A stretch of 62,780 nucleotides of DNA from a virus (lineage: Duplodnaviria > Caudoviricetes): positions 1 through 62,780 of the IMG/VR virus record IMGVR_UViG_3300036828_000344, one strand, 5' to 3'. Of the stretch, positions 1 through 62,780 are shown one piece after another (within the stretch, counting starts at the first letter, position 1; each line of letters opens with the position of its first letter). Position numbers and translations under genes: made by a program. The notes under the pieces were generated by a model, which saw nothing but the letters and a program-made list of their open reading frames with translations, searched no databases and was not told the origin of the DNA.

Positions 1-141
1 AGCTCGCGCGCCATGACCTTGACGGCCATGTTGAGAGCGGCCTTGGAGGCGCAGTACGCGACGGAGCCGCGCATAGGGATCTCGGCCGCGTCCGACGATA
101 CCGCGACGGCCGAGAGCGCGCTGTTGGGGTATTGCAGTATG
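1..141. repeat. Terminal overlap, copy 1 (matches 62640-62780 except one base)
   Basis: Direct comparison of both ends; only mismatch is 127 G vs 62766 T. Indicates a circular or circularly permuted assembly. Confidence 0.97.
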
Positions 142-440
142 TGCTCGGATATAAGCGCGACGAATCCGGCGCAGTTGACCGAGAACATGTCTTCCATACG
201 GTAGACAATCTTCTGGTCGCTGACCCAGGCGAGCTGGTTGATTCCGGCCGAGTAGACGATGTGCGTGAACGGGCCGTATATCTCGCATAGCGTGATAATG
301 TCGGAGCGCGCCTCAACGTTTACCTCGGTGCGAGTAGGCATGAACTGCCATAGCTCCGGATTGCGTTTGGCTAGTAGCTCAGCAGTCGCCGCGCCGATGC
401 CGGAATGGCCGCCGATGATGAGGACTTTACCATCCTTCAT
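1..440 (-). CDS. Short-chain dehydrogenase/reductase (SDR), 5' part; continues across the join to 62390
   Basis: ATG at 440 reads MKDGKVLIIGGHSGIGAATAELL (GxxxGIG NAD(P) motif). The frame continues via the overlap into YCASK and RINAVAPG, giving 229 aa in total. Confidence 0.9.
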   Translation of the reverse strand, partial: MKDGKVLIIGGHSGIGAATAELLAKRNPELWQFMPTRTEVNVEARSDIITLCEIYGPFTHIVYSAGINQLAWVSDQKIVYRMEDMFSVNCAGFVALISEHILQYPNSALSAVAVSSDAAEIPMRGSVAYCASKAALNMAVKVMARE

Positions 441-1128
441 TGTTTTCCTTCCACCTCTCGATGTCTTTGGTAATTCGCATCCATAGCTCTTCCAGCGATA
501 GTACCCGGACGCCTGGGATACCGTCGCGCCGATTATATGGCTGGTCCCGTAGGTAGACCTTCCGGACTCCGTTAGTCATTGCGTCGGCCACCATGTCCGG
601 GAGATCATCCACAGCCGCGACGATTCGTGTGGGATTGACTTGCTCGACTAGCTCACGGTATTTGGTGGCCGGATTGCCGCCCTCAAGCAATCCTTCAAAT
701 AGCACGGCGTCATATTCGATGTGGTTACGCCGGAGCCATTCGCGCGTGTCTGGGTCGATGTTGTCTAGCCGGAGATACGGCCGGGTAGTACAGATCCAGA
801 CTTGTGCTTCCCATTCACGGATGCTGCGGGTTAGCTCAGCCGCGAACGGATAGGCTGGCATGAAGCGCTTGAGCCCACCCTGCCGGTAGGCGAGCTTGCA
901 CTGCTGGTACAGCGGATGTGGCACGCCCATGAAATCCGAGAGGCGAAGTCCAGGGTTGATATCGGTCGCGGAAGGCATAGGCATTCCCAGCCACTTCTCT
1001 GCGAACCAGAGGAAGTGTGCGTGGTAGTCGCCTAGCGTACCGTCGATGTCGATCGCGACTACAGGCTTGCCGTCTCCTGGACCTCGTGGCTTTACCTCGG
1101 CCGGCTGTGGAAGCACAATTGCTGTCAT
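427..1128 (-). CDS. HAD-superfamily phosphatase (5'(3')-deoxyribonucleotidase-like)
   Basis: DIDGT motif I, ICTTR motif II, VDD motif IV. Confidence 0.8.
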   Translation of the reverse strand: MTAIVLPQPAEVKPRGPGDGKPVVAIDIDGTLGDYHAHFLWFAEKWLGMPMPSATDINPGLRLSDFMGVPHPLYQQCKLAYRQGGLKRFMPAYPFAAELTRSIREWEAQVWICTTRPYLRLDNIDPDTREWLRRNHIEYDAVLFEGLLEGGNPATKYRELVEQVNPTRIVAAVDDLPDMVADAMTNGVRKVYLRDQPYNRRDGIPGVRVLSLEELWMRITKDIERWKENNEGW

Positions 1129-1376
1129 CGGATGATTACCGCTTCCTTGGCGAGGTCGGACACGATGAGAGCGAACGCATCATCCAGATTGATGTCTTCG
1201 ACTATGGGGTGAATTGAGGCTACCCGGATAGTCCGGTTCACCAGGCCGAAATGGTGGATGTGGTATATCGCCCGGTGTATGGGGCCGAGATCTGTGCTGA
1301 CGAGTAGTTCGGCGTCTGTTGCACCGATGTCGCGAACGGAGCCGCTAGCCGGGCCGTCTACGAATAGCGCGATCAT
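1125..1376 (-). CDS. Hypothetical protein
   Basis: ATGA overlaps with both neighbours inside the operon. Confidence 0.7.
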   Translation of the reverse strand: MIALFVDGPASGSVRDIGATDAELLVSTDLGPIHRAIYHIHHFGLVNRTIRVASIHPIVEDINLDDAFALIVSDLAKEAVIIR

Positions 1377-2143
1377 CGGATCATCTCCATTACTTCCGGG
1401 AAGGCCTGGTGGACTAGGTAAGACTTCCTCCAGGCTCCGTACCGGCCGATGCGCTTGTATTCCGGGTAGCAGTCACAGTCCGTTTCGAGCGGCTTGACTA
1501 CACGGGCATAGCTTGCGCTCGTGGCCGGAGGCTTAGGCCATTCCGTTGTCTGGTATCCGAATACTCGCGAGATCCGGTACCAGTCGTGCTCGCCGGTACC
1601 GTCACAGATGATGGAGTCTTCCGGGTACGGTACCGCATCCGTCGTGCCGTTCGCGTATATGTCATGGAACTTGAACCGGTGCTCAGGCTTGTAGCAGAGA
1701 GCCGGAGCCGGGATGGTTGAGATAATCATGTCCGGCCTGGAGCCGAATACCTCATCCGGCACGATGCCATTCTCGATTAGCGGTATCCGGTAGAAATGGA
1801 CGACCTCATCGGTAATTAGACGGTCCCACATCCGCAGGTAGGTCTCGCGAATATCCCATGCGTCGTGCTCGCCTATGAAGTCTTCCGGGCTAACCTTGCC
1901 GGTCCAGTTGCTGCCGTAGACCTTCTGCCGGTATTCGCCGGCTGTCCCAATGAGCGAATAGCTAACGCGAGTGTGGGCAGCTCGCTCGTATCCGGGAATG
2001 GGAGCGTGGAGATACTGACAGCCATAGAGCGTGCTCGGCCTAGCAGAGCTGCTCATGACGGTGGCCCTATTGCCAGAACTGACGACTGCCGCAGCAGCCG
2101 CCAGCCCAGCAGGGCCGCATCCGAGAATCGTGACACGGCTCAT
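1373..2143 (-). CDS. FAD-dependent oxidoreductase, UDP-galactopyranose-mutase-like fold
   Basis: ILGCGPAGLAAA dinucleotide-binding motif, YGCQYLH segment and C-terminal IGRYGAW; RBS AGGAAAGG before the ATG at 2143. Confidence 0.7.
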   Translation of the reverse strand: MSRVTILGCGPAGLAAAAAVVSSGNRATVMSSSARPSTLYGCQYLHAPIPGYERAAHTRVSYSLIGTAGEYRQKVYGSNWTGKVSPEDFIGEHDAWDIRETYLRMWDRLITDEVVHFYRIPLIENGIVPDEVFGSRPDMIISTIPAPALCYKPEHRFKFHDIYANGTTDAVPYPEDSIICDGTGEHDWYRISRVFGYQTTEWPKPPATSASYARVVKPLETDCDCYPEYKRIGRYGAWRKSYLVHQAFPEVMEMIR

Positions 2144-2221
2144 GGTGGTGGTCCTTTCCTGCAAACCTGCCCGGAAGGCTATGCCCTGTTTACCTTCCGG
2201 GCAGGCGTCTACGGTCAGCGG

Positions 2222-3079
2222 CTAGAACGGGATGTCATCCTTGGCGGCACGGCCACGGCCACGACGGGCCGGAGCCGCAGCCGGGGCCGGAGCGCGACCG
2301 GAAGAACGGCCTCCGCGCGGCGCAGAGCCGGACGCTGCGGGCCGCGCCGGAGCGCTCGCGGCCGGACGCCTACCGCGAGCCGGAGCTGCGGCCGTAGTCG
2401 CGCTCCGGGCCGCTCCGCGACGGCCACGAGCCGGAGCGGGCTCAGGCTCTGCCTCTGCCTCTTCGCCGTCCTCTTCGCCGTCCTCTTCCTCATACTCGTC
2501 ATCGGCCTCATCGTCGGCCGCTTCCTCGGCGTCCTCGCCCTCTTCATCGTCCTCATCGTCATAGGGCAGCCATTCCTTGACGCGAGGCGACATGACGCCG
2601 TTGTACGGCTCCTGTTCCGTGATGATCCGGCACCAGGCCTCATCGGAGTCCTCGCCCGGCCGGAAGCCGTCGATGGAGATGATCGGGGCACCGTTCTGGT
2701 CGGTCTTGTCTTCCACATCGACCTTGCGGGCCTTGATCGCCCGGATGGAGATCTGGAAGTTGTCGAGGAATGGGCCCCACCGGAACTTGGAGCCTGCGTT
2801 GAGCGCGGCGTTGAGCCAGAATGGGCAGTCGTTGTACTGCTCCAGGTCGCCTTCATTGTCGGCCGCGACGGTGAGAATCTTCAGCATGGGGTCGTTGCCG
2901 GAGCCGTTCGCCTTTGTGGCGGAGCGAGTCCACCACATCCGCTTGACGTAAGCGGTCAGTTCGGTGCCGACCGGAGGAACTTCGCCATAATAGCGGTCGA
3001 ATTCCTCGGTGGAGTATTCCGCTGATTCCAGTTCCTTGACGTCAAGGCTGGCGACATCTTCTGAGCGGAGCTTAGCCAT
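2222..3079 (-). CDS. Single-stranded DNA-binding protein (putative)
   Basis: Acidic tract and terminal DDIPF; lies after the exonuclease and AAA ATPase genes. Confidence 0.65.
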   Translation of the reverse strand: MAKLRSEDVASLDVKELESAEYSTEEFDRYYGEVPPVGTELTAYVKRMWWTRSATKANGSGNDPMLKILTVAADNEGDLEQYNDCPFWLNAALNAGSKFRWGPFLDNFQISIRAIKARKVDVEDKTDQNGAPIISIDGFRPGEDSDEAWCRIITEQEPYNGVMSPRVKEWLPYDDEDDEEGEDAEEAADDEADDEYEEEDGEEDGEEAEAEPEPAPARGRRGAARSATTAAAPARGRRPAASAPARPAASGSAPRGGRSSGRAPAPAAAPARRGRGRAAKDDIPF

Positions 3080-15252: not shown

Positions 15253-15666
15253 TCAGTCTTTCTTCGCGCGGAGCGTACCATCCTGCACGTTCCACTCAAG
15301 CTCCACGCCCTCATCCGCGAGGGTATCGGCTGCCTGGTTCATCTGGTCTTGCTCTGGCAGCACAGGCAGCTCGCCCGGCTTGCCGAACTGGATGCCGGAC
15401 GTATCCACGCCCTGCGCCCGGAGGGCTCCGGTGATGGCTGCCTGTGACCGTCGCCTCTGCCACCGGAAGGTGGAAATGGTGAACGCGACTACTCCGGCCG
15501 TACCGGCGATGATGCCGACTGCGATCAGCATGTAGATCAGCGTCTGGATGATGACCTCATGGTAGATGTAGATCATGATGCCAGCTGCGATCAGCATGAT
15601 GAGGACGGCTAGTGCTGGGGACATCTGTGCGCGGCTCGCGCTCCGCTCCATCCATCGCCTAATCAT
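15253..15666 (-). CDS. Two-TM membrane protein (Spd-like accessory of the transfer module)
   Basis: Two hydrophobic segments; ATGA overlap with the stop of the FtsK/TraB-like gene. Confidence 0.7.
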   Translation of the reverse strand: MIRRWMERSASRAQMSPALAVLIMLIAAGIMIYIYHEVIIQTLIYMLIAVGIIAGTAGVVAFTISTFRWQRRRSQAAITGALRAQGVDTSGIQFGKPGELPVLPEQDQMNQAADTLADEGVELEWNVQDGTLRAKKD

Positions 15667-17336
15667 GCCGCCAGTCCTTTCCGGTTCACCAGCGCGTAGT
15701 CGTGTAGCCACTGCTCGTCATCCATGAAGCCCTGCGTCCAGGTTCGCTTGTTGCCCTGGCACACTAGTATCTTACCCGGTCCTTCCAGACATTCCTCGCC
15801 AGGCGAGCCGATTGTGCGGATGAACTGGTTGGGCTGGAAGCCAGCTGCGCAGAACGCGCTGAACGCGAACTTGAGGGACTGGCCTCCCATCGCCCGGTCG
15901 GTCAGATCCTGGAACATGAACTCACCGAACATGTTGGCCTGCCGGCCCTGCTGGAGTAGCGGTGCGATTGCCTCAGCCCACACAGACGGGCTCGCGCTCG
16001 ATTCGCCAAGAGTCTTGGTCCAGTAGTTCTTGAGCTTGCCGCCGAGGTGGTTGCCCTCATCACAGAAGATCCAGATGTCACCGAAATCAGACAGATGCTT
16101 CCGCCGCTCGCGGACGGCCGTGTACCTTTCCTCCAGGATACCGTTGAGCTTGTAGAAGATATCCCAGATCTTATCCATCTCCGTCACCGGATTGTCGAAG
16201 ATATGGACGCCGGGAATCCCGTGGAGAGCTTCAAAGCTGACCTGCTTGGTGTCGATGCAGTATATCTGGGCCGCTGGATCCTTGTGAGCGATCTGCGCGA
16301 CCTTTACCATGAAGCTCATCGACTTGCCCGTGCCGGAGCCCATGAACCTGCACCACCATGGGAGGTCTCCGTTGTGGCTCTGCACGTACACCGAACCTTC
16401 AGCCCGGACGCCTAGCCCGGTCTCCCGTGCTCCGAGAGCCTGGATGGCCGGGAGGTAGTCGCGGAGCCGCACCATGCTCGGCAGCTTGGGGATGATGACC
16501 GGTATCCAGGCGAGCGAGCGCGGGCTGACGGTAGTGTTCCAGCTGAAGCGAACCTTGCCGATCGTATGTGCCTCAATGATCTCCTGGATTGACTCGCGGT
16601 CGCGCACCAGGGCCGCAAACGTATCCGGTAGCCGTAGCTCGCCGCGCTCCGGGCTCATCTTTAGCAGGCTCATTGCCTCGGCCGAGGAACAGCCCATCTT
16701 GCTCGCGAGTAGCGAAGCCAGGACGTTCTTGGGGATGCCTTCCAGCTGTGGCTTCTCTTCCTCAACGAGAATCGGCCTCGTGCCGACCGTCATTGCGTCG
16801 GCTCCAAACACCCGCTTGGCGACCTGCGTCTGCGCCATGGCCGGCGCATGGACCGGATGAGTCTTGCGGTAGCTCGCGCGAGCCCGGATAATCCAGATCG
16901 CGAGCCGGAGCATAACCAGGCAGAAGATCAGGATGACTATGGCGCGGATCGTATCGGCCGGAGCGAACGCCAGGCAGCTTAGCAGGACCAGGACGGTGAA
17001 GACAGCCAGGTTGTTGCGGATGGCCCGGTAAAGTCGCGAGTGGGGCGTGAAGTAGACAAGTGTGCCTTCCGGAGTCGCTTTCTTGGTGCCTCCGGCCGCA
17101 GACCGGAGTCGCCTCTCATCGCCAAAAGACTTCTCTGGATGGAAGTGTGCGCCCGTGTGGAACCGTACCAGTACGCGGTGGATCTTGCCGGGCCGTCCGG
17201 GATGTCGCCAGCCGAGGTATTCCTGACCGTAGCCGTTGAGGATCCACGCGGAAGCCGTGATAATGTACAGCCCAAAGTAGACCAGGAACGGTATCCACCA
17301 CTGTACGTGGAGGCCACGCAAGATCAGTCCGGTCAT
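15663..17336 (-). CDS. TraB/FtsK-SpoIIIE-like membrane-anchored DNA translocase
   Basis: N-terminal TM helices, Walker A GSGTGKS, IDTK, Walker B WIFCDE, QGRQ, and a late PG-K/R segment. Confidence 0.8.
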   Translation of the reverse strand: MTGLILRGLHVQWWIPFLVYFGLYIITASAWILNGYGQEYLGWRHPGRPGKIHRVLVRFHTGAHFHPEKSFGDERRLRSAAGGTKKATPEGTLVYFTPHSRLYRAIRNNLAVFTVLVLLSCLAFAPADTIRAIVILIFCLVMLRLAIWIIRARASYRKTHPVHAPAMAQTQVAKRVFGADAMTVGTRPILVEEEKPQLEGIPKNVLASLLASKMGCSSAEAMSLLKMSPERGELRLPDTFAALVRDRESIQEIIEAHTIGKVRFSWNTTVSPRSLAWIPVIIPKLPSMVRLRDYLPAIQALGARETGLGVRAEGSVYVQSHNGDLPWWCRFMGSGTGKSMSFMVKVAQIAHKDPAAQIYCIDTKQVSFEALHGIPGVHIFDNPVTEMDKIWDIFYKLNGILEERYTAVRERRKHLSDFGDIWIFCDEGNHLGGKLKNYWTKTLGESSASPSVWAEAIAPLLQQGRQANMFGEFMFQDLTDRAMGGQSLKFAFSAFCAAGFQPNQFIRTIGSPGEECLEGPGKILVCQGNKRTWTQGFMDDEQWLHDYALVNRKGLAA

Positions 17337-18232
17337 TACCCACTCTTCTCATGAGCCTCGCGGTAGGCAGCCTTGACGTCATCCGGTAGCGGGCCGCGAC
17401 GGCCAACACGGCCACGGTACTCCGGACGGTCTAGCGCCCATTCACGAATGTGGATGTCTGGCTTGTGACGGCCTTCCCAGGTACCGTCACGTGGAGCGGC
17501 CTCGCGCCGGTCGCGGTGCTGCTTGAGAACTTCCGGAGGCGCGACCTCGGCCGTGCGTTCCTGGACCGGCTCTGCGCCGCTGCTGGCCGGCTCTGCGGGT
17601 GCGGGCTCGATACGCTCGCGGACGTTCCGGACGGCTCGCGCCTCGCGCTTGAATTCCTCAGCCAGCGTCAGCGCCACGATCTGGAGCGCAGATGAACGGG
17701 CCACGACAATGTCGCGGAGGTCGCGCAGTGTGGAGAGTGGGAACAGGATCCAGCGTATGATGCCGTACTTGGGCAGTGGCGATGGGTAGATGGAACCGGC
17801 TCGCGCTTGCGCCTTGCGCCGCTCATAGTGGATGTGAATGTCGTACAGGACGGCTGCTATGACGGGAAGGCTCGCCCACATTAGCCATGCGCCGGGAGGC
17901 TCGCCGGCCAGCCGGGCGTGGAAGGTCTGGAGGAATGCCGACACGAGCGCCAGACAGTTGACGAATATGCGCGGCTTGGAGCCAGACATTCCCTTCTGTG
18001 CATACTTTAGCGAGTAGTCGGCTCCGACCAGAGCCGCACCGTCAAAGCAGGTACTCATGAAGATCGCGATGTATGGCGGCACGCCAAAGTGGCGCGCGAC
18101 CCAGAAAAGCGAGTAAGCGCTCACGCCGAGAATTGGCACGAGTACGAGCAGCCAGATAAAGCGGGTGTAAGCTACCCGCGCGAACGCTGCCAGCCTACTC
18201 CGGTAAGAGCCGGTAGGCGTAGGATCGGACAT
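17336..18232 (-). CDS. SpdA/DUF2637-like 4-TM protein with C-terminal Lsr2-like DNA-binding domain
   Basis: Four hydrophobic helices with SAYSL.WVA..FG and FDG, an RW.L.P..T segment, and C-terminal IREWA...VGRRGPLPDDVKAAY. Confidence 0.7.
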   Translation of the reverse strand: MSDPTPTGSYRSRLAAFARVAYTRFIWLLVLVPILGVSAYSLFWVARHFGVPPYIAIFMSTCFDGAALVGADYSLKYAQKGMSGSKPRIFVNCLALVSAFLQTFHARLAGEPPGAWLMWASLPVIAAVLYDIHIHYERRKAQARAGSIYPSPLPKYGIIRWILFPLSTLRDLRDIVVARSSALQIVALTLAEEFKREARAVRNVRERIEPAPAEPASSGAEPVQERTAEVAPPEVLKQHRDRREAAPRDGTWEGRHKPDIHIREWALDRPEYRGRVGRRGPLPDDVKAAYREAHEKSG

Positions 18233-54794: not shown

Positions 54795-57107
54795 TCATCC
54801 TTCTGGATCGATTACCCAAATCTTTTCGATCATTACCGGAGTGCCGAATCCGGCTATCCGGTACCCGGCTATCACCACTACATCGTGGTTGACATGAATG
54901 GTGCCTAGCTTTCTCTGTAGGTGTGGGAACTTCCACCGGTTTACCCGGCCATAGACTTCCTCATCACTCGTGTCGTACATATGCAGGGTAGCTCGCTTGA
55001 TAAGGTCGGGCCGCTTCAGCTCCGCAAGGATTTCCTCAACTTCACGGCCGCTGCGGCTCCGCTCGTCCTCCACAATGTCCTTATACTCTACTCTCCGGAC
55101 AACGCCTTCATAAACCACCCATGGTCCGGGCGCGAATCGCCTGCCGCGATCTGCGTTCCTTACTACTTCTATAGAAGCTAGCTGTTCACCGTTATGTGTC
55201 GGCTGTGGGACTTCCTTCTGTCGCCGGAGCCAGCGGTTAACGGAGGCGAGCTTGCGCTCTGTCCGGTAAAGACCGAATGGGTCGTTGGCGGCCGCAAACT
55301 CGGCCATACGCTCGGCGGTACGGTCTCCGATACCCGGAACGACCGTAAGGTCATAGAAGCTACCCCAGCCGCTTGCAGGCCGGGCTGCATCGATTCGCGC
55401 GGCTATCTTATCACCGATTTTTGGCACCTGGTTCCAGCCTGCCAGGATTTCCATGCGCCGCTCGCCGCGCTCGGCCGTGTAATGATGCGGCACCCAGGTC
55501 TGCCGGGAATGGCGCGCGACCGGAGGCTTGATATCTATCGAGTGCGCTAGTGCGTCGCGCATGAGCCGGAATCGCGTCTCTTCCTTACCGGCCTTCGCGA
55601 GCGAGGCCGCATAAAACTCAAGCGGGTAATTTGCCTTGAGCCAGGCAGTCCAGAAGGCCAGCATGCTGTAGCTGATAGCGTGCGCGATGTTGAAGCTATA
55701 GGTACCGGACGTCACGAGCCGCTTCCAGATCCGGTCGGCTAGCTCGCGGTCTATCCCGTGTAGCCGTTCCGCTCCGTCCGCAAAGCTGCCATAGCTGACG
55801 TTGAATGCGGCCTCGCCTAGTTTCTTTGATATGATCCGGCGAATCTGCCCGGCGTGCGTCCAGTCGAATCCCCCGACATCCCGCACAATCTTCAGGATCT
55901 GCTCCTGATATATTATCTGTCCGTAGGTGTCCTTTGTGATTTCGTCCACCACTGGATGAAGCGGCTGAGCTTTCTTTCGTCCATGTCGAACGTCAACGTA
56001 CTCTGCGGTCTGTCCGGAAAATAGCGGGCCAGGACGCGATAGCGCATTGACGTCTGTGATATGCTGGAAATGATCTGGATGGACATCTCGGTTGACGAGC
56101 CTAGTAGCTCTACCCTCAAACTGAAATACTCCGATGACATCTCCGGTACTGAAAATCGAGACGGCTCCAGGGTCAGTATCGGGAATCGCATACAAGTCCT
56201 CCAGGGTTAGGCCGGCCATCTCCAGACAGCGGGCGATCATTCCCATGGTCGATAGGCCAAGGAAGTCTAGCTTTAGGGCTCCGACGTATTCGGCATCATA
56301 CTTGTCGATCGACATTACCTGCGAGCCGTTCTTGGTATACACGGCGCAGATGTCGGTCAGTGGGCTATTCGCGATTACCAGGCCGGCTGCGTGTACGCTC
56401 ATTCCGCGAACGTCGCCTTCAAGCCGGGTAGCCTTTATCAGGTCTGGGTACTCTAGCAGGATATCCTGTGCGGCCGGGAACATATCAAATGTGTCGCCCA
56501 GGGTAGCGTCAAAGCGCGAGTCACCACCCGACCTCTCAATTAGCAGGTTCGCGACTATTTCTGTAGCCCAGGGCGGAATGTCGTATACACGAGCCACATC
56601 CTTGAGGGAATTCTTGCCACGGTACCGGACGAAATTGCCGATGTGTCCGAAACATTCCTTACCGTACTTACCCTCAAGGTACTGCCAGACGAGGTACCGG
56701 TGCTCATCGGAGCAGTCGACGTCAATGTCTGGTGGATCCGGTCGCGATAGGTCAAGGAAGCGCTCGAATACCATCATGGGATAGCGGTGCGGGTCAATCT
56801 CGGTAATCCGGAGTAGCCAAGCTACTACACTGGCCGCTGTGGAGCCGCGACCGGGGCCAAACGGTATGCCGTGATCCTTGCCCCATCGGATCGTGTCGGA
56901 GGTAAACAGGAAGAAATCAGCGAGGCCGCGCTCCAGGATCAGCTCCATCTCATATCTGACGCGGTCAGCGTACCAGTCACGGTGCTCCTGCGGCCGCTCG
57001 CCTATGTTGCGGTACTCCCAGCCAAACCGGAGCCACTTCCACAACAGTTCCTCGGCTTCCGGGCGCGAGCGCTCGCTAATCTTCTCCGCTGTTGCGGTTG
57101 CGGTCAT
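54795..57107 (-). CDS. dnaE: DNA polymerase III alpha (DnaE-like), catalytic part
   Basis: GPGRGS, FERFL, PDIDVD, SVHAAG, KLDFLGL, YQEQ and YSFN.AHA.SY; TGATG overlap at 57107. Confidence 0.95.
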   Translation of the reverse strand: MTATATAEKISERSRPEAEELLWKWLRFGWEYRNIGERPQEHRDWYADRVRYEMELILERGLADFFLFTSDTIRWGKDHGIPFGPGRGSTAASVVAWLLRITEIDPHRYPMMVFERFLDLSRPDPPDIDVDCSDEHRYLVWQYLEGKYGKECFGHIGNFVRYRGKNSLKDVARVYDIPPWATEIVANLLIERSGGDSRFDATLGDTFDMFPAAQDILLEYPDLIKATRLEGDVRGMSVHAAGLVIANSPLTDICAVYTKNGSQVMSIDKYDAEYVGALKLDFLGLSTMGMIARCLEMAGLTLEDLYAIPDTDPGAVSIFSTGDVIGVFQFEGRATRLVNRDVHPDHFQHITDVNALSRPGPLFSGQTAEYVDVRHGRKKAQPLHPVVDEITKDTYGQIIYQEQILKIVRDVGGFDWTHAGQIRRIISKKLGEAAFNVSYGSFADGAERLHGIDRELADRIWKRLVTSGTYSFNIAHAISYSMLAFWTAWLKANYPLEFYAASLAKAGKEETRFRLMRDALAHSIDIKPPVARHSRQTWVPHHYTAERGERRMEILAGWNQVPKIGDKIAARIDAARPASGWGSFYDLTVVPGIGDRTAERMAEFAAANDPFGLYRTERKLASVNRWLRRQKEVPQPTHNGEQLASIEVVRNADRGRRFAPGPWVVYEGVVRRVEYKDIVEDERSRSGREVEEILAELKRPDLIKRATLHMYDTSDEEVYGRVNRWKFPHLQRKLGTIHVNHDVVVIAGYRIAGFGTPVMIEKIWVIDPEG

Positions 57108-57442
57108 CAGGTGAGCCAGAGCCAGGGATGGTAAACGGTACCGCTGGCCGTTCTGAATATCGGCGCATGGCATATAACACATTCGCCATAACGGCTCGCT
57201 ATCTCGACTGCTGTCGCGGAAACCGGAGGATTCCGGTAAGAGACCCAGCGGTCATCCGGTCCAAGGTTGACGACCTCCGCATCGGCATTCTCGGTAACGA
57301 CCGTAATGACATCGCGCTCGTGCTCGTTACGCCAGACGAGGATTACCCGGCCGACGAAACAGCGAGCCGGATAGCTCTGCTCGATATAGATTAGCTCACC
57401 CTGGACGGGATTGCCGATGGCCGCTTCCCAGTTGATGTCCAT
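57107..57442 (-). CDS. Hypothetical protein between the two DnaE parts
   Basis: RBS AGAGG; C-terminal CVIC...H. Confidence 0.6.
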   Translation of the reverse strand: MDINWEAAIGNPVQGELIYIEQSYPARCFVGRVILVWRNEHERDVITVVTENADAEVVNLGPDDRWVSYRNPPVSATAVEIASRYGECVICHAPIFRTASGTVYHPWLWLT

Positions 57443-58377
57443 GGTCTGTCATCCTCTTTGCTGATTGGGTACTGGAGCCGGTCTGCCTTAGGCAGGGTTA
57501 CGTTACAGCCCTCCGCTATCCGGGCCGAGGTCTCGATGGCCTCCCAGGCAGCCGTCCGCGAAAGGCCAGTCTTCATCAGCCGTCCGGCTAGCTCGCGATC
57601 GGATTCCGGTAGCGTCATCGGCACTTCATAATTCCACTCGCGAAGTACGTCATCAATCGAATGCTTGCCGCGATGAACGGCATGAAGGATAGCCTGCATT
57701 TCGCCATCCTCCGGCCGAGGGTAATGGACGTCACAAGTGACTACAAGCGGCACGCCAGTTTCTTTCGACAGCTTTTCATACGCGCGGTTTATCCGGCCGG
57801 ACTTATCCAGCTCCCAGAATGGCTGGACCTCAAGATAGAAGTCATCGCCAAACAGACGCTGGAACCGGTGAATGACTAGCCTTGCATCATCCCAGCCGTA
57901 GCCGTCTCGCGAGGTCGGCTCCGGTATATTCTTACCACCGACCAGAGAGCAGGCGAGCAGCGAGCCCGTACAGCCGGATAGCGCCACGAGACCTTCGCGG
58001 TTAGCCGCGAGGCTTACGCCGGAGACGGTCGGATGATAATGGTAATCCTTCCAGGACTGCGTTATGACCTTGTTGAGGTTCCGGTATCCCGTCTGATTCC
58101 TCGCGAGAATCGTTAGGTGGAATTTGTACTGTCCCCTGTGTTCCTCGTCAACGGCTCCGGTATAAGCCTCCAGCCCAAAGATAGGCTTGATGCCGGCAAT
58201 GAGCGCGTACTTCTCAAGCTGGAAGTGAGAGCTATTCCCGCCATGCTCGGTAAGCGCCATAGCGGTATAGCCGAGGGCGGCAGCGCGCTCGACATGGAAC
58301 CGTGGCAGCTTATGTCCGTCTCCGTGGCTGAAGGTCGAATGGCCGTGGAGATTGACATACTCCATAGCGGGATTCAT
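57391..58377 (-). CDS. PHP domain of DNA polymerase III alpha, encoded as a separate gene
   Basis: LHGHSTFS..DG, ALTEHG, IKPIFGLEAY, HLTILA, LSGC and T.DVHY. Confidence 0.93.
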   Translation of the reverse strand: MNPAMEYVNLHGHSTFSHGDGHKLPRFHVERAAALGYTAMALTEHGGNSSHFQLEKYALIAGIKPIFGLEAYTGAVDEEHRGQYKFHLTILARNQTGYRNLNKVITQSWKDYHYHPTVSGVSLAANREGLVALSGCTGSLLACSLVGGKNIPEPTSRDGYGWDDARLVIHRFQRLFGDDFYLEVQPFWELDKSGRINRAYEKLSKETGVPLVVTCDVHYPRPEDGEMQAILHAVHRGKHSIDDVLREWNYEVPMTLPESDRELAGRLMKTGLSRTAAWEAIETSARIAEGCNVTLPKADRLQYPISKEDDRPWTSTGKRPSAIPSRVS

Positions 58378-58528: not shown

Positions 58529-58903
58529 TTAGCCGGGCTCCCCTAGCTCGCCCCACTTTGTGCCCTTGTTCCGGAGGCGCCAGTACATACCGCCGAACGT
58601 CACAAGGTCGATGGCTGAGTCGCCGTCGAATTCGTCATGCCGCCAGGAGCGGTACCTGAGGCGTCCGGCCTTGTTGAGGATATCGAGCACGAGACCTTTC
58701 CAGCCTTTGCTCCGCCAGGTTGAGCCGTCCGGGGCATAGCCGCGAGTCGACATAATCATCAGCGAGAGCGCGTACGGCCCGGCCAGCTGATCGATGGCGT
58801 CTGGGGTCGGGTTGACTCCGAGGACTTTGATGAAGTCGAATGCGGCGTCATGGATGACGTCATCATCGATTTCCTCCAGGATCATTTCCTCTTGGGTATT
58901 CAT
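58529..58903 (-). CDS. Nucleotide-modification-associated domain (Nmad1/DUF1599-like, alpha-helical pyrophosphatase fold)
   Basis: Y...W...G......K..RL...DS..DL..F pattern; genomic context. Confidence 0.55.
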   Translation of the reverse strand: MNTQEEMILEEIDDDVIHDAAFDFIKVLGVNPTPDAIDQLAGPYALSLMIMSTRGYAPDGSTWRSKGWKGLVLDILNKAGRLRYRSWRHDEFDGDSAIDLVTFGGMYWRLRNKGTKWGELGEPG

Positions 58904-59166
58904 TCGCTCGCCTTTCTGACTTGCTCTTTGGTCCAGATACCGTCAAGCTCAGTAGTCGCCGGCCATTGACAGCCGCGACATTTGAGGAGTACGGTCGTTG
59001 TGCTGCTCGCCGGCATACGCGGGTGAATAGGGCTCGCCGGTAGCTTTACCCCTAGTATATCCCACATATGGACGTGCGCATTACTCGCCATTACCTGGAA
59101 TGCGCCGATGATGTGCTCGGCTATCCGCTGGAATGCCTCGGCGTCTGATGGTGCGTCCTCGGCCAT
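58900..59166 (-). CDS. Hypothetical protein
   Basis: Overlaps both neighbours; H.H.W and C..C. Confidence 0.6.
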   Translation of the reverse strand: MAEDAPSDAEAFQRIAEHIIGAFQVMASNAHVHMWDILGVKLPASPIHPRMPASSTTTVLLKCRGCQWPATTELDGIWTKEQVRKASE

Positions 59167-60077
59167 TATGGCCTCCGGGCTGCGCCGTAGCTAAGCGGCT
59201 CGTGCGGGTGAATGTCGGTCCACGTCTCCGGCCGGTCGCCTTTTCTGTGGTGCTCTTCCACGCGGTCGCGGATGTCGCAGTGCCGGTCAGCTGGGCCCAT
59301 GAACTCACAGCGGCCGGTCTGATAGCAGACGGGCCGGAACATCCGCACGATTGCTTCCTGCTGCCAGCGTTCCTCGTCCGGGCCGTAGGCGAGGATGGCG
59401 CGGATGATCTGTGCCCAGACCTGCTTCCACTCATACTGCGCTTGCGAGCAGAGCCGGAGCCCGGCGTGATCGATGAGGTTCCGGAGATTCGTGTGGTAGT
59501 GCATCCGGGTACCGATGTTGGTCGGCAGGACTCCGCGAGCGTCCTCGGCCGGAACGCCACCGTTCACCATCCGGCCGTAGCTCGCGGCTATGTACCGGGA
59601 TGTGGTCGTCCACTCGACTCGCAGCGGGTGATCTTCCGCTAGCCTCGCGATGAATTCCGGCATGATGATTGCCGTCTCGGCATCATCCTTGACCGCGAAT
59701 CGCATCGACTCCTGGACGTAGGTAGCCGTCCTCTGCCGGACGGCCTGGTGCGTCCAGCCTCGCGTGACGCCGGAGATGTGGAGGGAGATGCTGACCCATT
59801 CGAGCGGAGCCGGTAGGCCGCGCGCCTTGAGCGCACCGTGGTACCACTCCATCGCCCGTTCCTGCGTCACCAGGCGTGGGTCAGTAAAGACTCCACCCCG
59901 GTATAGCTCGCTGACCGCCGCGACTAGCCGGAGCGGATTCGCGGTCATGTCGACTACCGTGACCGTGGGGCCGCTTGCGTCAACGGGCTCGGCCGAGTAC
60001 ATCGCCTGATCGGCCCAGCGGACGGGCAGCCTAGGCCGGTCGCCCGGATCGTTGGGGTGTGGTCCTGGTCCAGCCAT
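59166..60077 (-). CDS. thyX: ThyX-like flavin-dependent enzyme with altered motifs
   Basis: GVTR..THQ.VRQR......ESMRF, EDARGVLP, NLR.L and RLC..AQ.EW. Confidence 0.85.
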   Translation of the reverse strand: MAGPGPHPNDPGDRPRLPVRWADQAMYSAEPVDASGPTVTVVDMTANPLRLVAAVSELYRGGVFTDPRLVTQERAMEWYHGALKARGLPAPLEWVSISLHISGVTRGWTHQAVRQRTATYVQESMRFAVKDDAETAIIMPEFIARLAEDHPLRVEWTTTSRYIAASYGRMVNGGVPAEDARGVLPTNIGTRMHYHTNLRNLIDHAGLRLCSQAQYEWKQVWAQIIRAILAYGPDEERWQQEAIVRMFRPVCYQTGRCEFMGPADRHCDIRDRVEEHHRKGDRPETWTDIHPHEPLSYGAARRP

Positions 60078-60376
60078 CAGTTCTTCTCCGGTTCTGGTGC
60101 GTTGAGTATGAGTGATGCCATCTCCAGGAATACCTCGGAGAGATCATGCTTGCTAAAAGTTTTGTTGGCCGGAAGCCAGAACGTAATGGCGCTCCGGTCG
60201 TCATCGTCGGCCGTGTGGTGAAGGATGTCCGGGCTCGCGAGGTACATGCGGGCTCCGAAATACCGGATGCCGGTATCGGCTAGCTTGGATACCAGCTCAA
60301 TTTCCGGGGTGAGTTCCTGAGAGTAGACGTTAATGCGCATTGCCGTCTCCGTTCTGATTCGCCTGCATTCGCGCAT
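60077..60376 (-). CDS. Hypothetical protein (likely start at MRINVYSQE)
   Basis: Operon packing. Confidence 0.6.
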   Translation of the reverse strand: MRECRRIRTETAMRINVYSQELTPEIELVSKLADTGIRYFGARMYLASPDILHHTADDDDRSAITFWLPANKTFSKHDLSEVFLEMASLILNAPEPEKN

Positions 60377-60791
60377 ATATCGTCGCGAGCTTACCCATTA
60401 GTATATCGCGCGTCATCTGCGCATCCTTTGTAAAATGCTGAAGCGCGAGAATTCCGGTGAATACCACATCGGCTATCTCGTCCAGCATCGCGCCGAATGC
60501 CTCTGCGTTCTCCGGCTTGCGGGGATTCTGGCCGGTAAACAGGATGAGGTCGGCAATCGACTTGCCGAGAGGAATGAGGATATGGCTAATGCGCGAGTAG
60601 TCCTCATCGGTCGCGTCCGTCATGGAGTCCAGGGCTTCCATGGCCTCGCTCAGTTCCTCGGTGATCTTCGCCACACGGGCCCAGTCCTGCGCCATGGGCT
60701 GGTTCTGGTACTTGACGGCTACCGCTCCGTCCAGCCAGAGGTCGATACTCGCGACTGACTGCCAGTCGATTGTGTCTACCTGATAATTCAT
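60330..60791 (-). CDS. MazG-like nucleotide pyrophosphohydrolase
   Basis: KITEELSE, GQNPRK and DEIADV. Confidence 0.75.
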   Translation of the reverse strand: MNYQVDTIDWQSVASIDLWLDGAVAVKYQNQPMAQDWARVAKITEELSEAMEALDSMTDATDEDYSRISHILIPLGKSIADLILFTGQNPRKPENAEAFGAMLDEIADVVFTGILALQHFTKDAQMTRDILMGKLATIYARMQANQNGDGNAH

Positions 60792-61657
60792 TTCTCTCCG
60801 ACCTCCCAGTCAAATGCCTTTGTGGTATGGATATTGCCGAGAATGTAATCGTCAACGTTGAGGCAGTCGGTTATGAAATTCCTCCACCGACAGCGGTACT
60901 TGGCCGGAGGCCGCGAGATATAGCGCTCGCCCCAACGGTCGAAGAATGCCTGGTGAACGCGCGCCCAGGATTCGGCCGACCGGTCATCCATCGACACGCC
61001 ACCGAATTCCGGCCCTGGATTCTGCCGCAACATTCCGTTTGTGGATATCCCGGTATAGATATACCAGGGAACGTTCATGCCTTTGTAGGCATACCGGGCT
61101 AGCTCGACATCCTCGGCCATCCGGAGCTTAGGGTCAAATCCTCCGACGTACTGAACGTTGCCGACGTTCAGGCCAAAGCAGTGATAGCCCAGGCTTCCGT
61201 TGTGGAGCCAGATACCGGGCTCGCGGTAGTTCTCCGCCATAGCGGTACCGCGCGAGAACAGGCCGTGTATTGACTCCCAGGCTCCGATTCCGACAACGTC
61301 ATCACGGGAGGCTGCCGCCAGGAGGCCCATAAGGTCTCCCTTGATGACCTGATCGTCATCGATCATGACGATAGCTTTGTAGCCGCGAGCGTTCGCGTGC
61401 CTGACGCAGAGGTCTCTGGCGTAGCCGATGCCCTTGGCGGGCTCGCTCCATTCCCGTCCGTCGCGCCACATAGGCAGCGCGAGACGGCTCCGGGTAATCG
61501 CCTCTCCGGTCTCCCGCTGGAACTGCCTAGCGGTCGTAACGTGAACCGGTACGGTGGCGTCCTGGGCTGCCAGAGCCTCGTGCACGGCCCTGATAGCGCG
61601 GATGAGGTACCGCGTCCGGTCGCGAGTCGGGATGTAGACTGCGTACTTGTCCGGCAT
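60788..61657 (-). CDS. GT-A glycosyltransferase resembling TET/JBP-associated DNA glycosyltransferases
   Basis: VYIPTRDR, GIGYAR, MIDDD, EDVEL and late GG motif. Confidence 0.75.
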   Translation of the reverse strand: MPDKYAVYIPTRDRTRYLIRAIRAVHEALAAQDATVPVHVTTARQFQRETGEAITRSRLALPMWRDGREWSEPAKGIGYARDLCVRHANARGYKAIVMIDDDQVIKGDLMGLLAAASRDDVVGIGAWESIHGLFSRGTAMAENYREPGIWLHNGSLGYHCFGLNVGNVQYVGGFDPKLRMAEDVELARYAYKGMNVPWYIYTGISTNGMLRQNPGPEFGGVSMDDRSAESWARVHQAFFDRWGERYISRPPAKYRCRWRNFITDCLNVDDYILGNIHTTKAFDWEVGEK

Positions 61658-62238
61658 CAGTACTCCACAAAGTCCTCGGTGCGGATCAGCTGCGTCACGA
61701 GAACCGTGTTGCGCTCCGTTAGGCCCATGATCATGTTGAAGCCAATCCGGAGCTTCCAGCCTCTCCCATCATCACCGTCAACGGCTCCGTCTCCGGTGTC
61801 ATAGTAGTGGTCGCTGAAGGCATTCTTCCAGACGTCAGTCGCGAACCGGGTACGGTGCTCGAAACAGTTGTGCGCTAGCTCCGAGGTATAGTGGCCGGCT
61901 ATGTTGACGAACCAGCCGCCCACCTTGAGGACTCGCTGTGCTTCTGCGAGCACAAAGACCGGCCGGGCGAAATGGTCCATGGCGTGGGAGGTAAAGATGC
62001 CATCGACCGACTCATCGTCATACGGTAGCTGGTCCTTGTTGGCGTCCCATTCCGGGTAATCAAGATTGCGCCAGTCGTATGTGGCCATAGGGCTGCCGTC
62101 GATTGTCTTCCGGCCGGAGCCTAGGTGAAGGTACAGGCCTCCGGTAACCGGGTATGTGTCGATAAATCTGGGGAAGTCACGGATCATCCCGATATTGAAA
62201 TGGTCCCAGAGGCTTACCGGGTGGCTGAAGTCGGTCAT
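61657..62238 (-). CDS. SAM-dependent methyltransferase (Methyltransf_11-like)
   Basis: LHLGSG, LPYDDESVD.I..SH..DH and RVLKVGG. Confidence 0.82.
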   Translation of the reverse strand: MTDFSHPVSLWDHFNIGMIRDFPRFIDTYPVTGGLYLHLGSGRKTIDGSPMATYDWRNLDYPEWDANKDQLPYDDESVDGIFTSHAMDHFARPVFVLAEAQRVLKVGGWFVNIAGHYTSELAHNCFEHRTRFATDVWKNAFSDHYYDTGDGAVDGDDGRGWKLRIGFNMIMGLTERNTVLVTQLIRTEDFVEY

Positions 62239-62390
62239 TTTGCTTCCTCCGGGATGGGGTGTTCTACCATTACTGAAGTCCAGCCGTTGTCGCCCATCCG
62301 GCCGTAAAGCGCCGATAGGATCTGCGACATCAGCTTGTCGTCCGGTATCTCTTCCTTACGGCCAAGATGAATTCTGACGTCGATAAACAT
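62235..62390 (-). CDS. 51-aa hypothetical protein
   Basis: TAATG and ATGA overlaps with the SDR and methyltransferase genes. Confidence 0.55.
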   Translation of the reverse strand: MFIDVRIHLGRKEEIPDDKLMSQILSALYGRMGDNGWTSVMVEHPIPEEAK

Positions 62391-62780
62391 TAGCGGCCTC
62401 CGTTGATTGAGATGATAGAGCCGGTCATCTGTGCCGGGCCGGTCAGGACCCAGGCGATTGTCTCGGCTACCTCTGCGAGGCTCGCTCGCCGCTTAGTTGG
62501 GACGTTCTGCCGTTCATAGTTGCGGGCCTGATCCGGAGTCCAGCCACGGAATGTGGGCACGGCATCATCGATGTAGTCGGTCATGTCCGTGTCCTCCACC
62601 ATGCCGGGCGCGACCGCGTTGATGCGATGGAGCGGAGCTAGCTCGCGCGCCATGACCTTGACGGCCATGTTGAGAGCGGCCTTGGAGGCGCAGTACGCGA
62701 CGGAGCCGCGCATAGGGATCTCGGCCGCGTCCGACGATACCGCGACGGCCGAGAGCGCGCTGTTGTGGTATTGCAGTATG
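62390..62780 (-). CDS. SDR, 3' part (joins 1-440)
   Basis: YCASKAA catalytic motif, RINAVAPG and terminal TG.II.INGG. Confidence 0.9.
   Translation of the reverse strand, partial: ILQYHNSALSAVAVSSDAAEIPMRGSVAYCASKAALNMAVKVMARELAPLHRINAVAPGMVEDTDMTDYIDDAVPTFRGWTPDQARNYERQNVPTKRRASLAEVAETIAWVLTGPAQMTGSIISINGGR
62640..62780. repeat. Terminal overlap, copy 2
   Basis: Matches 1-141. Confidence 0.97.

Follow-up and report, generated by a model that had tools for sequence, protein, structure and literature searches.

The minus strand of a Caudoviricetes genome (IMG/VR record IMGVR_UViG_3300036828_000344) encodes a ThyX-like flavoprotein in which several histidines of the thymidylate synthase ThyX are replaced. 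The same strand carries an orphan oxidoreductase, dependent on flavin adenine dinucleotide (FAD), whose gene is linked to the ThyX-like gene across related phages. The window analysed here is the whole record, 62,780 bases long and with an estimated completeness of 97%; its features are collected in Table 1. The G+C content is about 0.55-0.64. Bases 1-141 are repeated at 62640-62780 with 1 mismatch, so that the genome is either circularly closed or terminally redundant. The plus strand encodes a small terminase, an SPP1-type portal, an HK97-type capsid protein, a tape-measure protein, and siphovirus tail proteins. The minus strand carries a replication module with a primase-polymerase, an SNF2 helicase, a PD-(D/E)XK nuclease, an AAA_24 ATPase, and a split DnaE polymerase, and the ThyX-like gene stands in this module beside DnaE, as it does in cultured phages. 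A megablast search with the region found no DNA-level relatives among cultured phages, so the phage is new at that level; the relatives recognized at the protein level infect Mycobacterium, Gordonia, Microbacterium, and Streptomyces.

Table 1. Features of the window, with coordinates, strand, and supporting observations (aa, amino acids; SDR, short-chain dehydrogenase/reductase; TAGT, TET-associated glycosyltransferase; loci are those of the neighbourhood set described in the text)
Feature	Coordinates	Strand	Observations
ThyX-like flavoprotein, 303 aa	59166..60077	-	Pfam Thy1 PF02511, E 1.2e-30, residues 41-228; phrog_85, E 3.4e-28
ThyX signature RQRTATYVQES, residues 114-124 (His79 to Gln115)	59706..59738	-	Aligned with RHR-x7-S
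GLPAPLEW, residues 87-94 (His53 to Leu88, Thr55 to Ala90, Glu58 kept as Glu93, His59 to Trp94)	59796..59819	-	Alignment
Phe127 at the Tyr91 position	59697..59699	-	Phe in 121/121 close homologues
C251-x5-C257-x9-C267, C-terminal extension	59277..59327	-	Each Cys in 121/121
Orphan FAD-dependent oxidoreductase, phrog_8720 type	1373..2164	-	Probable start ATG 2143, 256 aa; N-terminal GCGPAG dinucleotide-binding motif
Split DnaE-type DNA polymerase III alpha	54795..58377	-	Pfam PHP, E 9.3e-29 (57391-58377); DNA_pol3_alpha, E 7.3e-60 (core, 54795-57182)
Pair of small conserved genes downstream (88 aa; 124 aa)	58529..59166	-	tblastn: 124-aa family in 52/80 loci, 88-aa family in 23/80
99-aa protein, phrog_20753	60077..60376	-	Predicted to be translationally coupled to the ThyX-like gene
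153-aa protein, weak candidate for an all-alpha MazG-like NTP pyrophosphohydrolase	60330..60791	-	Cluster relative against PRA-PH, E 0.0049; 10/44 loci
GT-A glycosyltransferase, TAGT-related	60788..61657	-	Pfam TAGT, 24 bits (cut-off 27.5); phrog_842, E 1.4e-8; 12/44 loci
Class I SAM-dependent methyltransferase	61657..62238	-	Methyltransf_11, E 2.1e-9; phrog_6636, E 8.1e-42; 35% identical to Troll4 gp63; 11/44 loci
SDR, C-terminal part	62390..62780	-	Pfam adh_short_C2, E 6.8e-14; 59% identical to Troll4 gp65 (FabG-like)
SDR, N-terminal part	3..440	-	Same gene, across the contig junction
HAD-family NT5C-like 5'-nucleotidase, DIDGT motif	427..1128	-	Cluster relative against Pfam NT5C, E 1.3e-4, below cut-off; 28/44 loci

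Besides being targeted by drugs, ThyX is a textbook example of how a flavin can transfer a methylene group. The protein of the window scored 107.1 bits against the Pfam Thy1 model (cut-off, 24.8), and the phage family that it matches, phrog_85, is annotated as thymidylate synthase. The initial annotation had proposed comparing a structure model with ThyX. The AlphaFold2 (AF2) model is confident (pLDDT, 94.3; pTM, 0.90), and its best Foldseek matches were chains of Thermotoga maritima ThyX (E, 3e-11; identity, 25-27%; TM-score, 0.76 by target and 0.56 by query), the lower query-normalized value being due to the added N- and C-terminal parts. The open reading frame (ORF) is predicted by this model to share the fold of canonical ThyX, represented here by the T. 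maritima enzyme (TM0449; PDB 1KQ4, 1O26, and 4GT9), to which it adds extensions at both termini (about 75 residues at the C terminus), an insertion, and four conserved cysteines. The start ATG of the gene overlaps the stop codon upstream (TGATG), and its stop TAA overlaps the ATG downstream (TAATG), an arrangement predicted to couple its translation on both sides. The database gene call begins at Met26 (P0001, 278 aa); since Asp23 and an RWAD motif upstream of that methionine are conserved in homologues, the long form of 303 residues is likely.

Residues were compared with T. maritima ThyX (1kq4, in which the chain number is the native number plus 12) in a HMMER alignment, and the register was checked in a MAFFT alignment including three canonical-type relatives (P0263, P0265, and P0266) that carry His53, His59, RHR, and Tyr91. 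Both alignments gave an identical register. The signature of ThyX is RHR-x7-S (Myllykallio 2002, as quoted in the accessible text of PMC2826268). Here, RQR...S aligns on R78-H79-R80...S88, so that the signature reads RQR-x7-S with both arginines and the serine retained, and GLPAPLEW aligns on G52-H53-E54-T55-P56-F57-E58-H59. The initial annotation had read the two segments in the same way, as RQR-TATYVQE-S and GLPAPLEW, and the agreement of the registers confirms it. Besides the five substitutions listed in Table 1, R74 is replaced by His110, N85 by Val121, E86 by Gln122, N169 by Asp203, D176 by Cys210, and H178 by Gln212. The coordinated changes at N85, Y91, H178, R74, and D176 extend what had been noticed before. 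The kept residues are E58 (Glu93), Q75 (Gln111), R78 (Arg114), R80 (Arg116), S88 (Ser124), R90 (Arg126), E144 (Glu178), R147 (Arg181), N163 (Asn197), R165 (Arg199), R174 (Arg208), Q180 (Gln214), and E182 (Glu216). They include the whole set that binds and activates deoxyuridine monophosphate (dUMP), namely Q75, R78, S88, R90, R147, and R174, which is invariant or nearly so in 98 sequences. Among the putative FAD-contact positions, E58, R78, R80, N163, and R165 are kept, and T55, H79, N169, and H178 are replaced; T55, H79, and H178 are reported to contact FAD in the T. maritima structure papers. The earlier proposal that FAD and nucleotide binding are both kept holds for the nucleotide, while its flavin part needs correction, since T55, H79, and H178 have changed.

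These replacements recur throughout the close relatives. In the query and its 120 best homologues (53-100% identical; n = 121), Gln115 is found in 120 sequences, and Ser124, Arg126, and Phe127 are found in every one. Position 88 is Leu in 63 and Ile in 52, position 94 is aromatic (F, W, or Y) in 120, and the position of Val121 is V, A, or I in 117. His110 (117/121) and His193 (120/121), both absent from T. maritima ThyX, are also nearly universal. The replacements are a character of the clade, not the result of chance or of a lesion. A loss of catalysis, leaving a nucleotide- or flavin-binding subunit with a regulatory or structural role in the replication machinery, would agree with the absence of several residues called essential and with the constant position of the gene beside DnaE genes. 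It is nonetheless very improbable: across sequences with an overall identity of only 30-40%, the catalytic arginines do not vary, nor do Ser88 and many residues of the pocket, as one would see in an active site maintained by selection.

The roles assigned to the replaced residues in canonical ThyX indicate where its chemistry may have changed. In the accessible text of PMC11940539, His53 is described as stacking on the folate pteridine when the ternary complex is oxidized and, when no substrate is bound, on the reduced isoalloxazine; Tyr91 and Asn85 keep it in place by hydrogen bonding, and the H53-Y91 bond stabilizes an "OFF" state of the flavin. This bears out the statement in the initial annotation that the histidine of the GH segment, here Leu88, contacts folate. 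The same source calls Tyr91 and Ser88 strictly conserved and critical, and mutation of Tyr91 in T. maritima ThyX is reported to slow methylation-linked flavin oxidation by about 1000-fold (PMC11940539 and PMC8316439, in their accessible parts). Ser88 and Tyr91 have been proposed as acids that aid the loss of water from a flavin carbinolamine (PMC8316439). ThyX is also described there as making dTMP from formaldehyde without folate, which renders a folate-independent supply of the one-carbon unit chemically plausible. It had been suggested that folate chemistry may be lost or changed in the phage protein; the loss of the entire H53-N85-Y91 triad fits a change of folate-side chemistry.

The family is large. 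A word-indexed protein search returned 1262 proteins at E<=1e-5 among 3426 candidates, and many of the 120 best homologues sit on contigs of about 60 kb. An exhaustive search of 50%-identity representatives gave 2094 matches at E<=0.001, of which 408 reached 1e-10 and 96 reached 1e-30. The pattern R.R-x7-S.R was found in 103 of 150 representatives, with Gln as the middle residue in 66, Thr in 17, His in 7, Asn in 6, and another residue in 7; many of the 47 that do not match are fragments. We built a quick maximum-likelihood tree of 138 rows, from which rows gapped in the first 23 of 27 tabulated site columns were dropped and to which the proteins of phages PA5, Bas98, and Gibson were added. 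The tree is midpoint rooted and many of its deep forks are weak; no direction of change is claimed. The query falls inside a clade of 109 rows (SH-aLRT, 99) in which a hydrophobic residue (L or I, rarely T or A) occupies position 53, every row has Phe at position 91, and position 79 varies among Q, T, N, S, G, and E. The latter position is relaxed rather than re-specialized, which we count in favour of dTMP as the product. His53 and Tyr91 occur together in 3 of the 138 rows, are both missing from 135, and are mixed in none; their joint change fits the hydrogen bond between them described in the accessible part of PMC11940539. The clade can be defined by R[QTNSGE]R-x7-S-x-R-F, a hydrophobic residue at position 53, Phe at 91, His at 74, usually four cysteines, and a linked FAD oxidoreductase, and the query conforms to it.

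Cultured actinophages encode members of the same clade, which share its motif and neighbours with the window protein at 29-39% identity. Mycobacterium phage Troll4 gp68 (Plotvirus, cluster D), Gordonia phage MoiGyank gp86, and Microbacterium phage Pharpay gp53 are annotated as "ThyX-like thymidylate synthase," and all of them carry RQRTA.Y.QES.RF; other Plotvirus/cluster D phages belong with Troll4. We found no biochemical characterization of these proteins in the literature retrieved. The gene order of Troll4 differs, with the polymerase upstream of the ThyX-like gene there and downstream in the window. More remote relatives that also lack the histidines are encoded by Pseudomonas phage PA5 (Pbunavirus), Escherichia phage Bas98 (Wifcevirus), and Streptomyces phage Gibson. 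In a literature search covering few subscription journals, we found no description of a ThyX clade that is His-less or lacks Tyr91, and none of the cysteines or the oxidoreductase partner.

Gene neighbourhoods were taken from the best 80 of 219 related viral-contig loci, in which ORFs were clustered and the presence of each family was scored by tblastn with the window proteins, a count that may miss divergent versions. After DnaE, the most regular neighbour of the ThyX-like gene was a protein of about 270 residues with an N-terminal GxGxxG. Among loci whose upstream sequence extends for 3 kb or more, 70 of 74 had this oxidoreductase, and among those with 9 kb or more, 43 of 44 did (the exception is L060). 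The protein of the window is 59% identical to a cluster relative (tblastn; E, 2e-87), which in turn matches phrog_8720 (E, 5.7e-79), a family without an assigned function. Among cultured phages, 126 records carry the oxidoreductase (Gordonia, 46; Microbacterium, 36; Mycobacterium, 32; Streptomyces, 9; Arthrobacter, 2; Nocardia, 1), and the ThyX-like protein gave identical counts for Gordonia, Microbacterium, and Mycobacterium, as a comparison of genus totals and not of single records. A stricter tblastn search with the ThyX-like protein (E<=1e-25) gave 53 records (Mycobacterium, 28; Gordonia, 25) and lost Microbacterium hits that had E of about 1e-37 in the first search; this count was set aside. 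The two genes overlap in Pharpay, where that of the oxidoreductase extends over the ThyX-like start. The linkage of the ThyX-like gene to an orphan FAD oxidoreductase is new here and, together with a phage-borne distribution, sets this clade apart from canonical ThyX. The AF2 model of the oxidoreductase (pLDDT, 95.7) shows a generic two-domain FAD fold. UDP-galactopyranose mutase was the best VIA-align match (Z, 14.8; root mean square deviation, 3.6 A; 251 residues aligned), and PhzS, PHBH-type (group A) monooxygenases, protoporphyrinogen oxidase, and D-amino-acid oxidase were within about 1 Z of it in the Foldseek and VIA-align comparisons, so we did not assign a function from the fold. A sequence search of the PDB matched the dinucleotide-binding motif only.

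The gene content of the rest of the genome constrains the product. In the 97%-complete genome, no match was found to the ThyA, TET/JBP, dCMP deaminase, thymidylate kinase, dihydrofolate reductase, or trimeric dUTPase families, and the ThyX-like gene is the only thymidylate-synthase-like gene present. ThyA was likewise not found in any of 10 related phage genomes, and each of 5 related genomes examined has one Thy1 match; Streptomyces phage Gibson carries a dCMP deaminase, a usual supplier of dUMP. Since the phage has no thymidylate kinase, dihydrofolate reductase, dUTPase, or dCMP deaminase of its own, the product must suit host kinases. We tentatively favour, with confidence that stays short of even, a phage-specific branch of the ThyX fold that converts dUMP to dTMP, with a folate and reductant half-reaction that has been rewired and depends on a partner. 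From the kept residues we infer that dUMP would stack on the flavin and be polarized by Arg208 and Arg126 as in ThyX, and the one-carbon unit would still be passed to C5 via the flavin, supplying dTMP for phage DNA replication. The changes would be concentrated on the folate/NADPH side of the flavin and on the loop gating it, where the H53-N85-Y91 triad has become Leu/Val/Phe and the His of RHR has become Gln. The co-inherited 256-residue FAD oxidoreductase would probably be required on this rebuilt side, either to reduce the flavin or to deliver the one-carbon unit. The initial annotation held that the product may not be dTMP; we consider dTMP rather probable, taking partner-dependent and self-sufficient versions together, because the genome has no other thymidylate-synthase-like gene, because this one is part of the replication module, and because a phage kinase for deoxynucleoside monophosphates (dNMPs) was not found.

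Several observations weigh against a partner-dependent dTMP synthase. The position of Tyr91 is always Phe here although this tyrosine has been called strictly conserved. The clade is almost absent from cellular genomes: a motif-pattern scan of 185,579 prokaryotic species, each represented by a single genome, which detects only sequences with the chosen motifs, found 3 loci (on 2 actinobacterial contigs and 1 Chthonomonadales contig, all from metagenome-assembled genomes). We know of no organism with a member of this clade as its sole thymidylate synthase. The oxidoreductase may act as the partner, a role suggested by gene linkage, and its modelled generic fold offers no hint of a reductase. 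The company of a methyltransferase, an SDR, and a 5'-nucleotidase, here with a TAGT-like glycosyltransferase, looks like a tailoring pathway rather than a plain supply of dTMP. Moreover, the ThyX-like protein scores 86.9 bits against the thyX equivalog model TIGR02170, one bit under its cut-off of 87.9.

So narrow a gap speaks at the same time for an ordinary, self-sufficient ThyX, in which the replacements would be compensated, for instance by His110, His193, or Trp/Phe94, and to which the oxidoreductase would be unrelated. The predicted fold and the retention of all nucleotide-binding residues agree with this explanation, as does the near invariance of His110 and His193. Glu144, mutated in published folate-site structures according to the titles of the entries, corresponds to the invariant Glu178, and both the databases and SEA-PHAGES label these proteins as thymidylate synthases. 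We nevertheless regard a self-sufficient enzyme as improbable. The linkage in 43 of 44 loci, the matching genus counts, and the overlapping frames of Pharpay are hard to call coincidence, and the coordinated losses strike exactly those residues marked as important by published mutagenesis, as reported in the accessible text of PMC11940539.

The remaining neighbours bear on a different product. Troll4 carries orthologues of the oxidoreductase (gp61; 40% identity), the nucleotidase (gp62, a "putative nucleotidase"; 52%), the methyltransferase (gp63; 35%), the SDR (gp65; 59% over the C-terminal part), and the ThyX-like protein itself (gp68; 39%). The SDR, present in 16 of 44 loci, is cut by the contig junction, and its two copies differ by one residue in their overlap. 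We considered it as a pteridine or dihydrofolate reductase and rejected this assignment: the best NCBIfam "pteridine reductase" model gave only 62.5 bits for the C-terminal fragment (cut-off, 288), the full-length orthologues of Troll4 and MoiGyank match generic SDR models equally well, and the only sequence match in the PDB was L-xylulose reductase. The atlas neighbours of the glycosyltransferase are viral clusters with TAGT in 32-44% of their members, and no sequence relative was found in the PDB at E<=1. It lies with the methyltransferase inside a nucleotide-metabolism operon, in a genome without a TET/JBP match, and the target of the pair could be DNA or a virion protein. The 153-aa protein has EExxE- and DExxD-like motifs by eye and no match in Pfam, PHROG, or NCBIfam.

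This set of genes is what would be expected if the enzyme made a non-canonical pyrimidine nucleotide that feeds modified thymidine into phage DNA. One candidate is 5-hydroxymethyl-dUMP, which would form by capture of water by the exocyclic-methylene intermediate when the flavin cannot reduce it; canonical ThyX reportedly gives this compound on acid quench. The FAD oxidoreductase, SDR, methyltransferase, and TAGT-like glycosyltransferase would then tailor the product, and clearance of the normal nucleotide would fall to the NT5C-like nucleotidase and the possible pyrophosphatase. The clade-wide loss of Tyr91, a proposed general acid, and of the folate-stacking His53 would fit such a diversion, as would the conservation of the oxidoreductase, nucleotidase, methyltransferase, SDR, and ThyX-like set in Troll4 at 35-59% identity. 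The nearest named relatives of the glycosyltransferase are TET-associated glycosyltransferases, yet this genome has neither a TET/JBP match nor a ThyA-type hydroxymethylase. Wifcevirus phages, which have His-less ThyX-like, HAD, and SDR genes, are described as withstanding restriction to a considerable degree in the accessible text of PMC11990801. Against this, the arginines that polarize the uracil are unchanged, and three of the putative tailoring genes are accessory: of 44 loci, 11 have the methyltransferase, 16 the SDR, and 12 the glycosyltransferase, the last of which lies about 10 kb away in relatives. Known phages with 5-hydroxymethyl-deoxyuridine or 5-hydroxymethylcytosine carry a dNMP kinase, and none was found in this genome. 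Actinophage glycosyltransferases and methyltransferases may instead decorate virion proteins, and no modified DNA has been reported for cultured members in the literature found. We regard a modified product as rather improbable, and neither this evidence nor that for dTMP is decisive. We would give slightly less credence to the broader proposal that the His-less enzyme and its obligate FAD oxidoreductase form the core of an undescribed flavin-based pathway supplying a thymidine analogue to phage DNA, extended by SDR, methyltransferase, nucleotidase, and glycosyltransferase where these are present. The analogue could be 5-hydroxymethyl-deoxyuridine or a further tailored or glycosylated deoxyuridine.

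Known systems offer a precedent for this chemistry. The ThyA-family dUMP and dCMP hydroxymethylases of phages SPO1 and T4 are relatives of thymidylate synthase that stop at the hydroxymethyl stage and feed DNA hypermodification (PMC8989533, accessible part). Their fold is unrelated to that of ThyX and their mechanism is cysteine based and flavin free, so the analogy bears only on the modified-DNA explanation. TrmFO, MnmEG, and RlmFO also carry out flavin-mediated one-carbon transfer to C5 of uracil (PMC8989533, in the same part), with different folds and RNA substrates, and in TrmFO a histidine likewise stacks on folate according to the accessible text of PMC11940539.

The ThyX-like proteins of Pbunavirus PA5 (gp065) and Wifcevirus Bas98 (Bas98_0051) form a separate branch, at about 26-30% identity to the window protein. 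They have I, T, and A at the sites of His53, His79, and Tyr91 and keep C210, C251, and C257; tblastn did not find the oxidoreductase in either phage. In Bas98 (L085, 3359-8284) and PA5 (L089, 860-6202), the ThyX-like gene is followed by a HAD "polynucleotide kinase/phosphorylase" gene, and Bas98 encodes a FabG-like SDR that is 42% identical to that of the window over 71 residues.

In addition to the three cysteines of the C-terminal extension, C210 (nt 59448-59450), two residues past the dUMP-activating arginine in a core helix, is present in 120 of the 121 sequences. All four cysteines occur in nearly all of 153 tabulated sequences, including three canonical-type rows. The Microbacterium-phage type (Pharpay, P0199, and P0203) has none of the four, and a few rows are without C210 only. 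From this pattern we read the cysteines as a putative structural metal site tying the C-terminal extension to the core.

Other parts of the window call for comment. A 111-aa ORF (57107-57442) overlaps the gap between the PHP-domain and core DnaE genes. The split of DnaE is common to the window and Microbacterium phage Pharpay; Troll4, MoiGyank, and Gibson have a single gene. Between the AAA_24 ATPase and the oxidoreductase sits a 285-aa protein (2222-3079, minus strand) found in 52 of the 80 related loci; a long acidic stretch in it precedes a tail rich in Arg and Ala, and it belongs to no Pfam or PHROG family. A 386-aa ORF on the plus strand (1865-3025), Arg/Ser/Gly rich and of low complexity, runs antisense to this gene and to the conserved gene at 1373-2164. 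It is almost certainly spurious and misleads gene calling based on length. At 15663-18232 (minus strand), an FtsK/SpoIIIE-like ATPase (weak, E 3.9e-5) adjoins a DUF2637 protein, a pairing more familiar in actinobacterial conjugative elements than in phages.

In papers on the mechanism of ThyX, His53, Ser88, and Tyr91 are regarded as conserved and essential, and here a very large natural clade lacks His53, His79, Asn85, and Tyr91 while the rest of the pocket is conserved. The clade, with 1262 database proteins at E<=1e-5 and 126 cultured actinophage genomes, includes cultured laboratory phages of Mycobacterium smegmatis, Gordonia, and Microbacterium. If the modified-DNA pathway were true, hundreds of cultured actinophages, and perhaps Pbunavirus and Wifcevirus, would carry an unrecognized DNA modification derived from an enzyme of the ThyX fold, not of the ThyA fold; Pbunavirus phages are reported to be in therapeutic use in the accessible text of PMC11990801. 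These results advise caution with the automatic label "thymidylate synthase" on such genes. Either a different protein context makes it possible to dispense with the roles accepted for these residues, or the product made by these phages is not dTMP, and in both cases a tightly linked orphan flavoprotein would take part.

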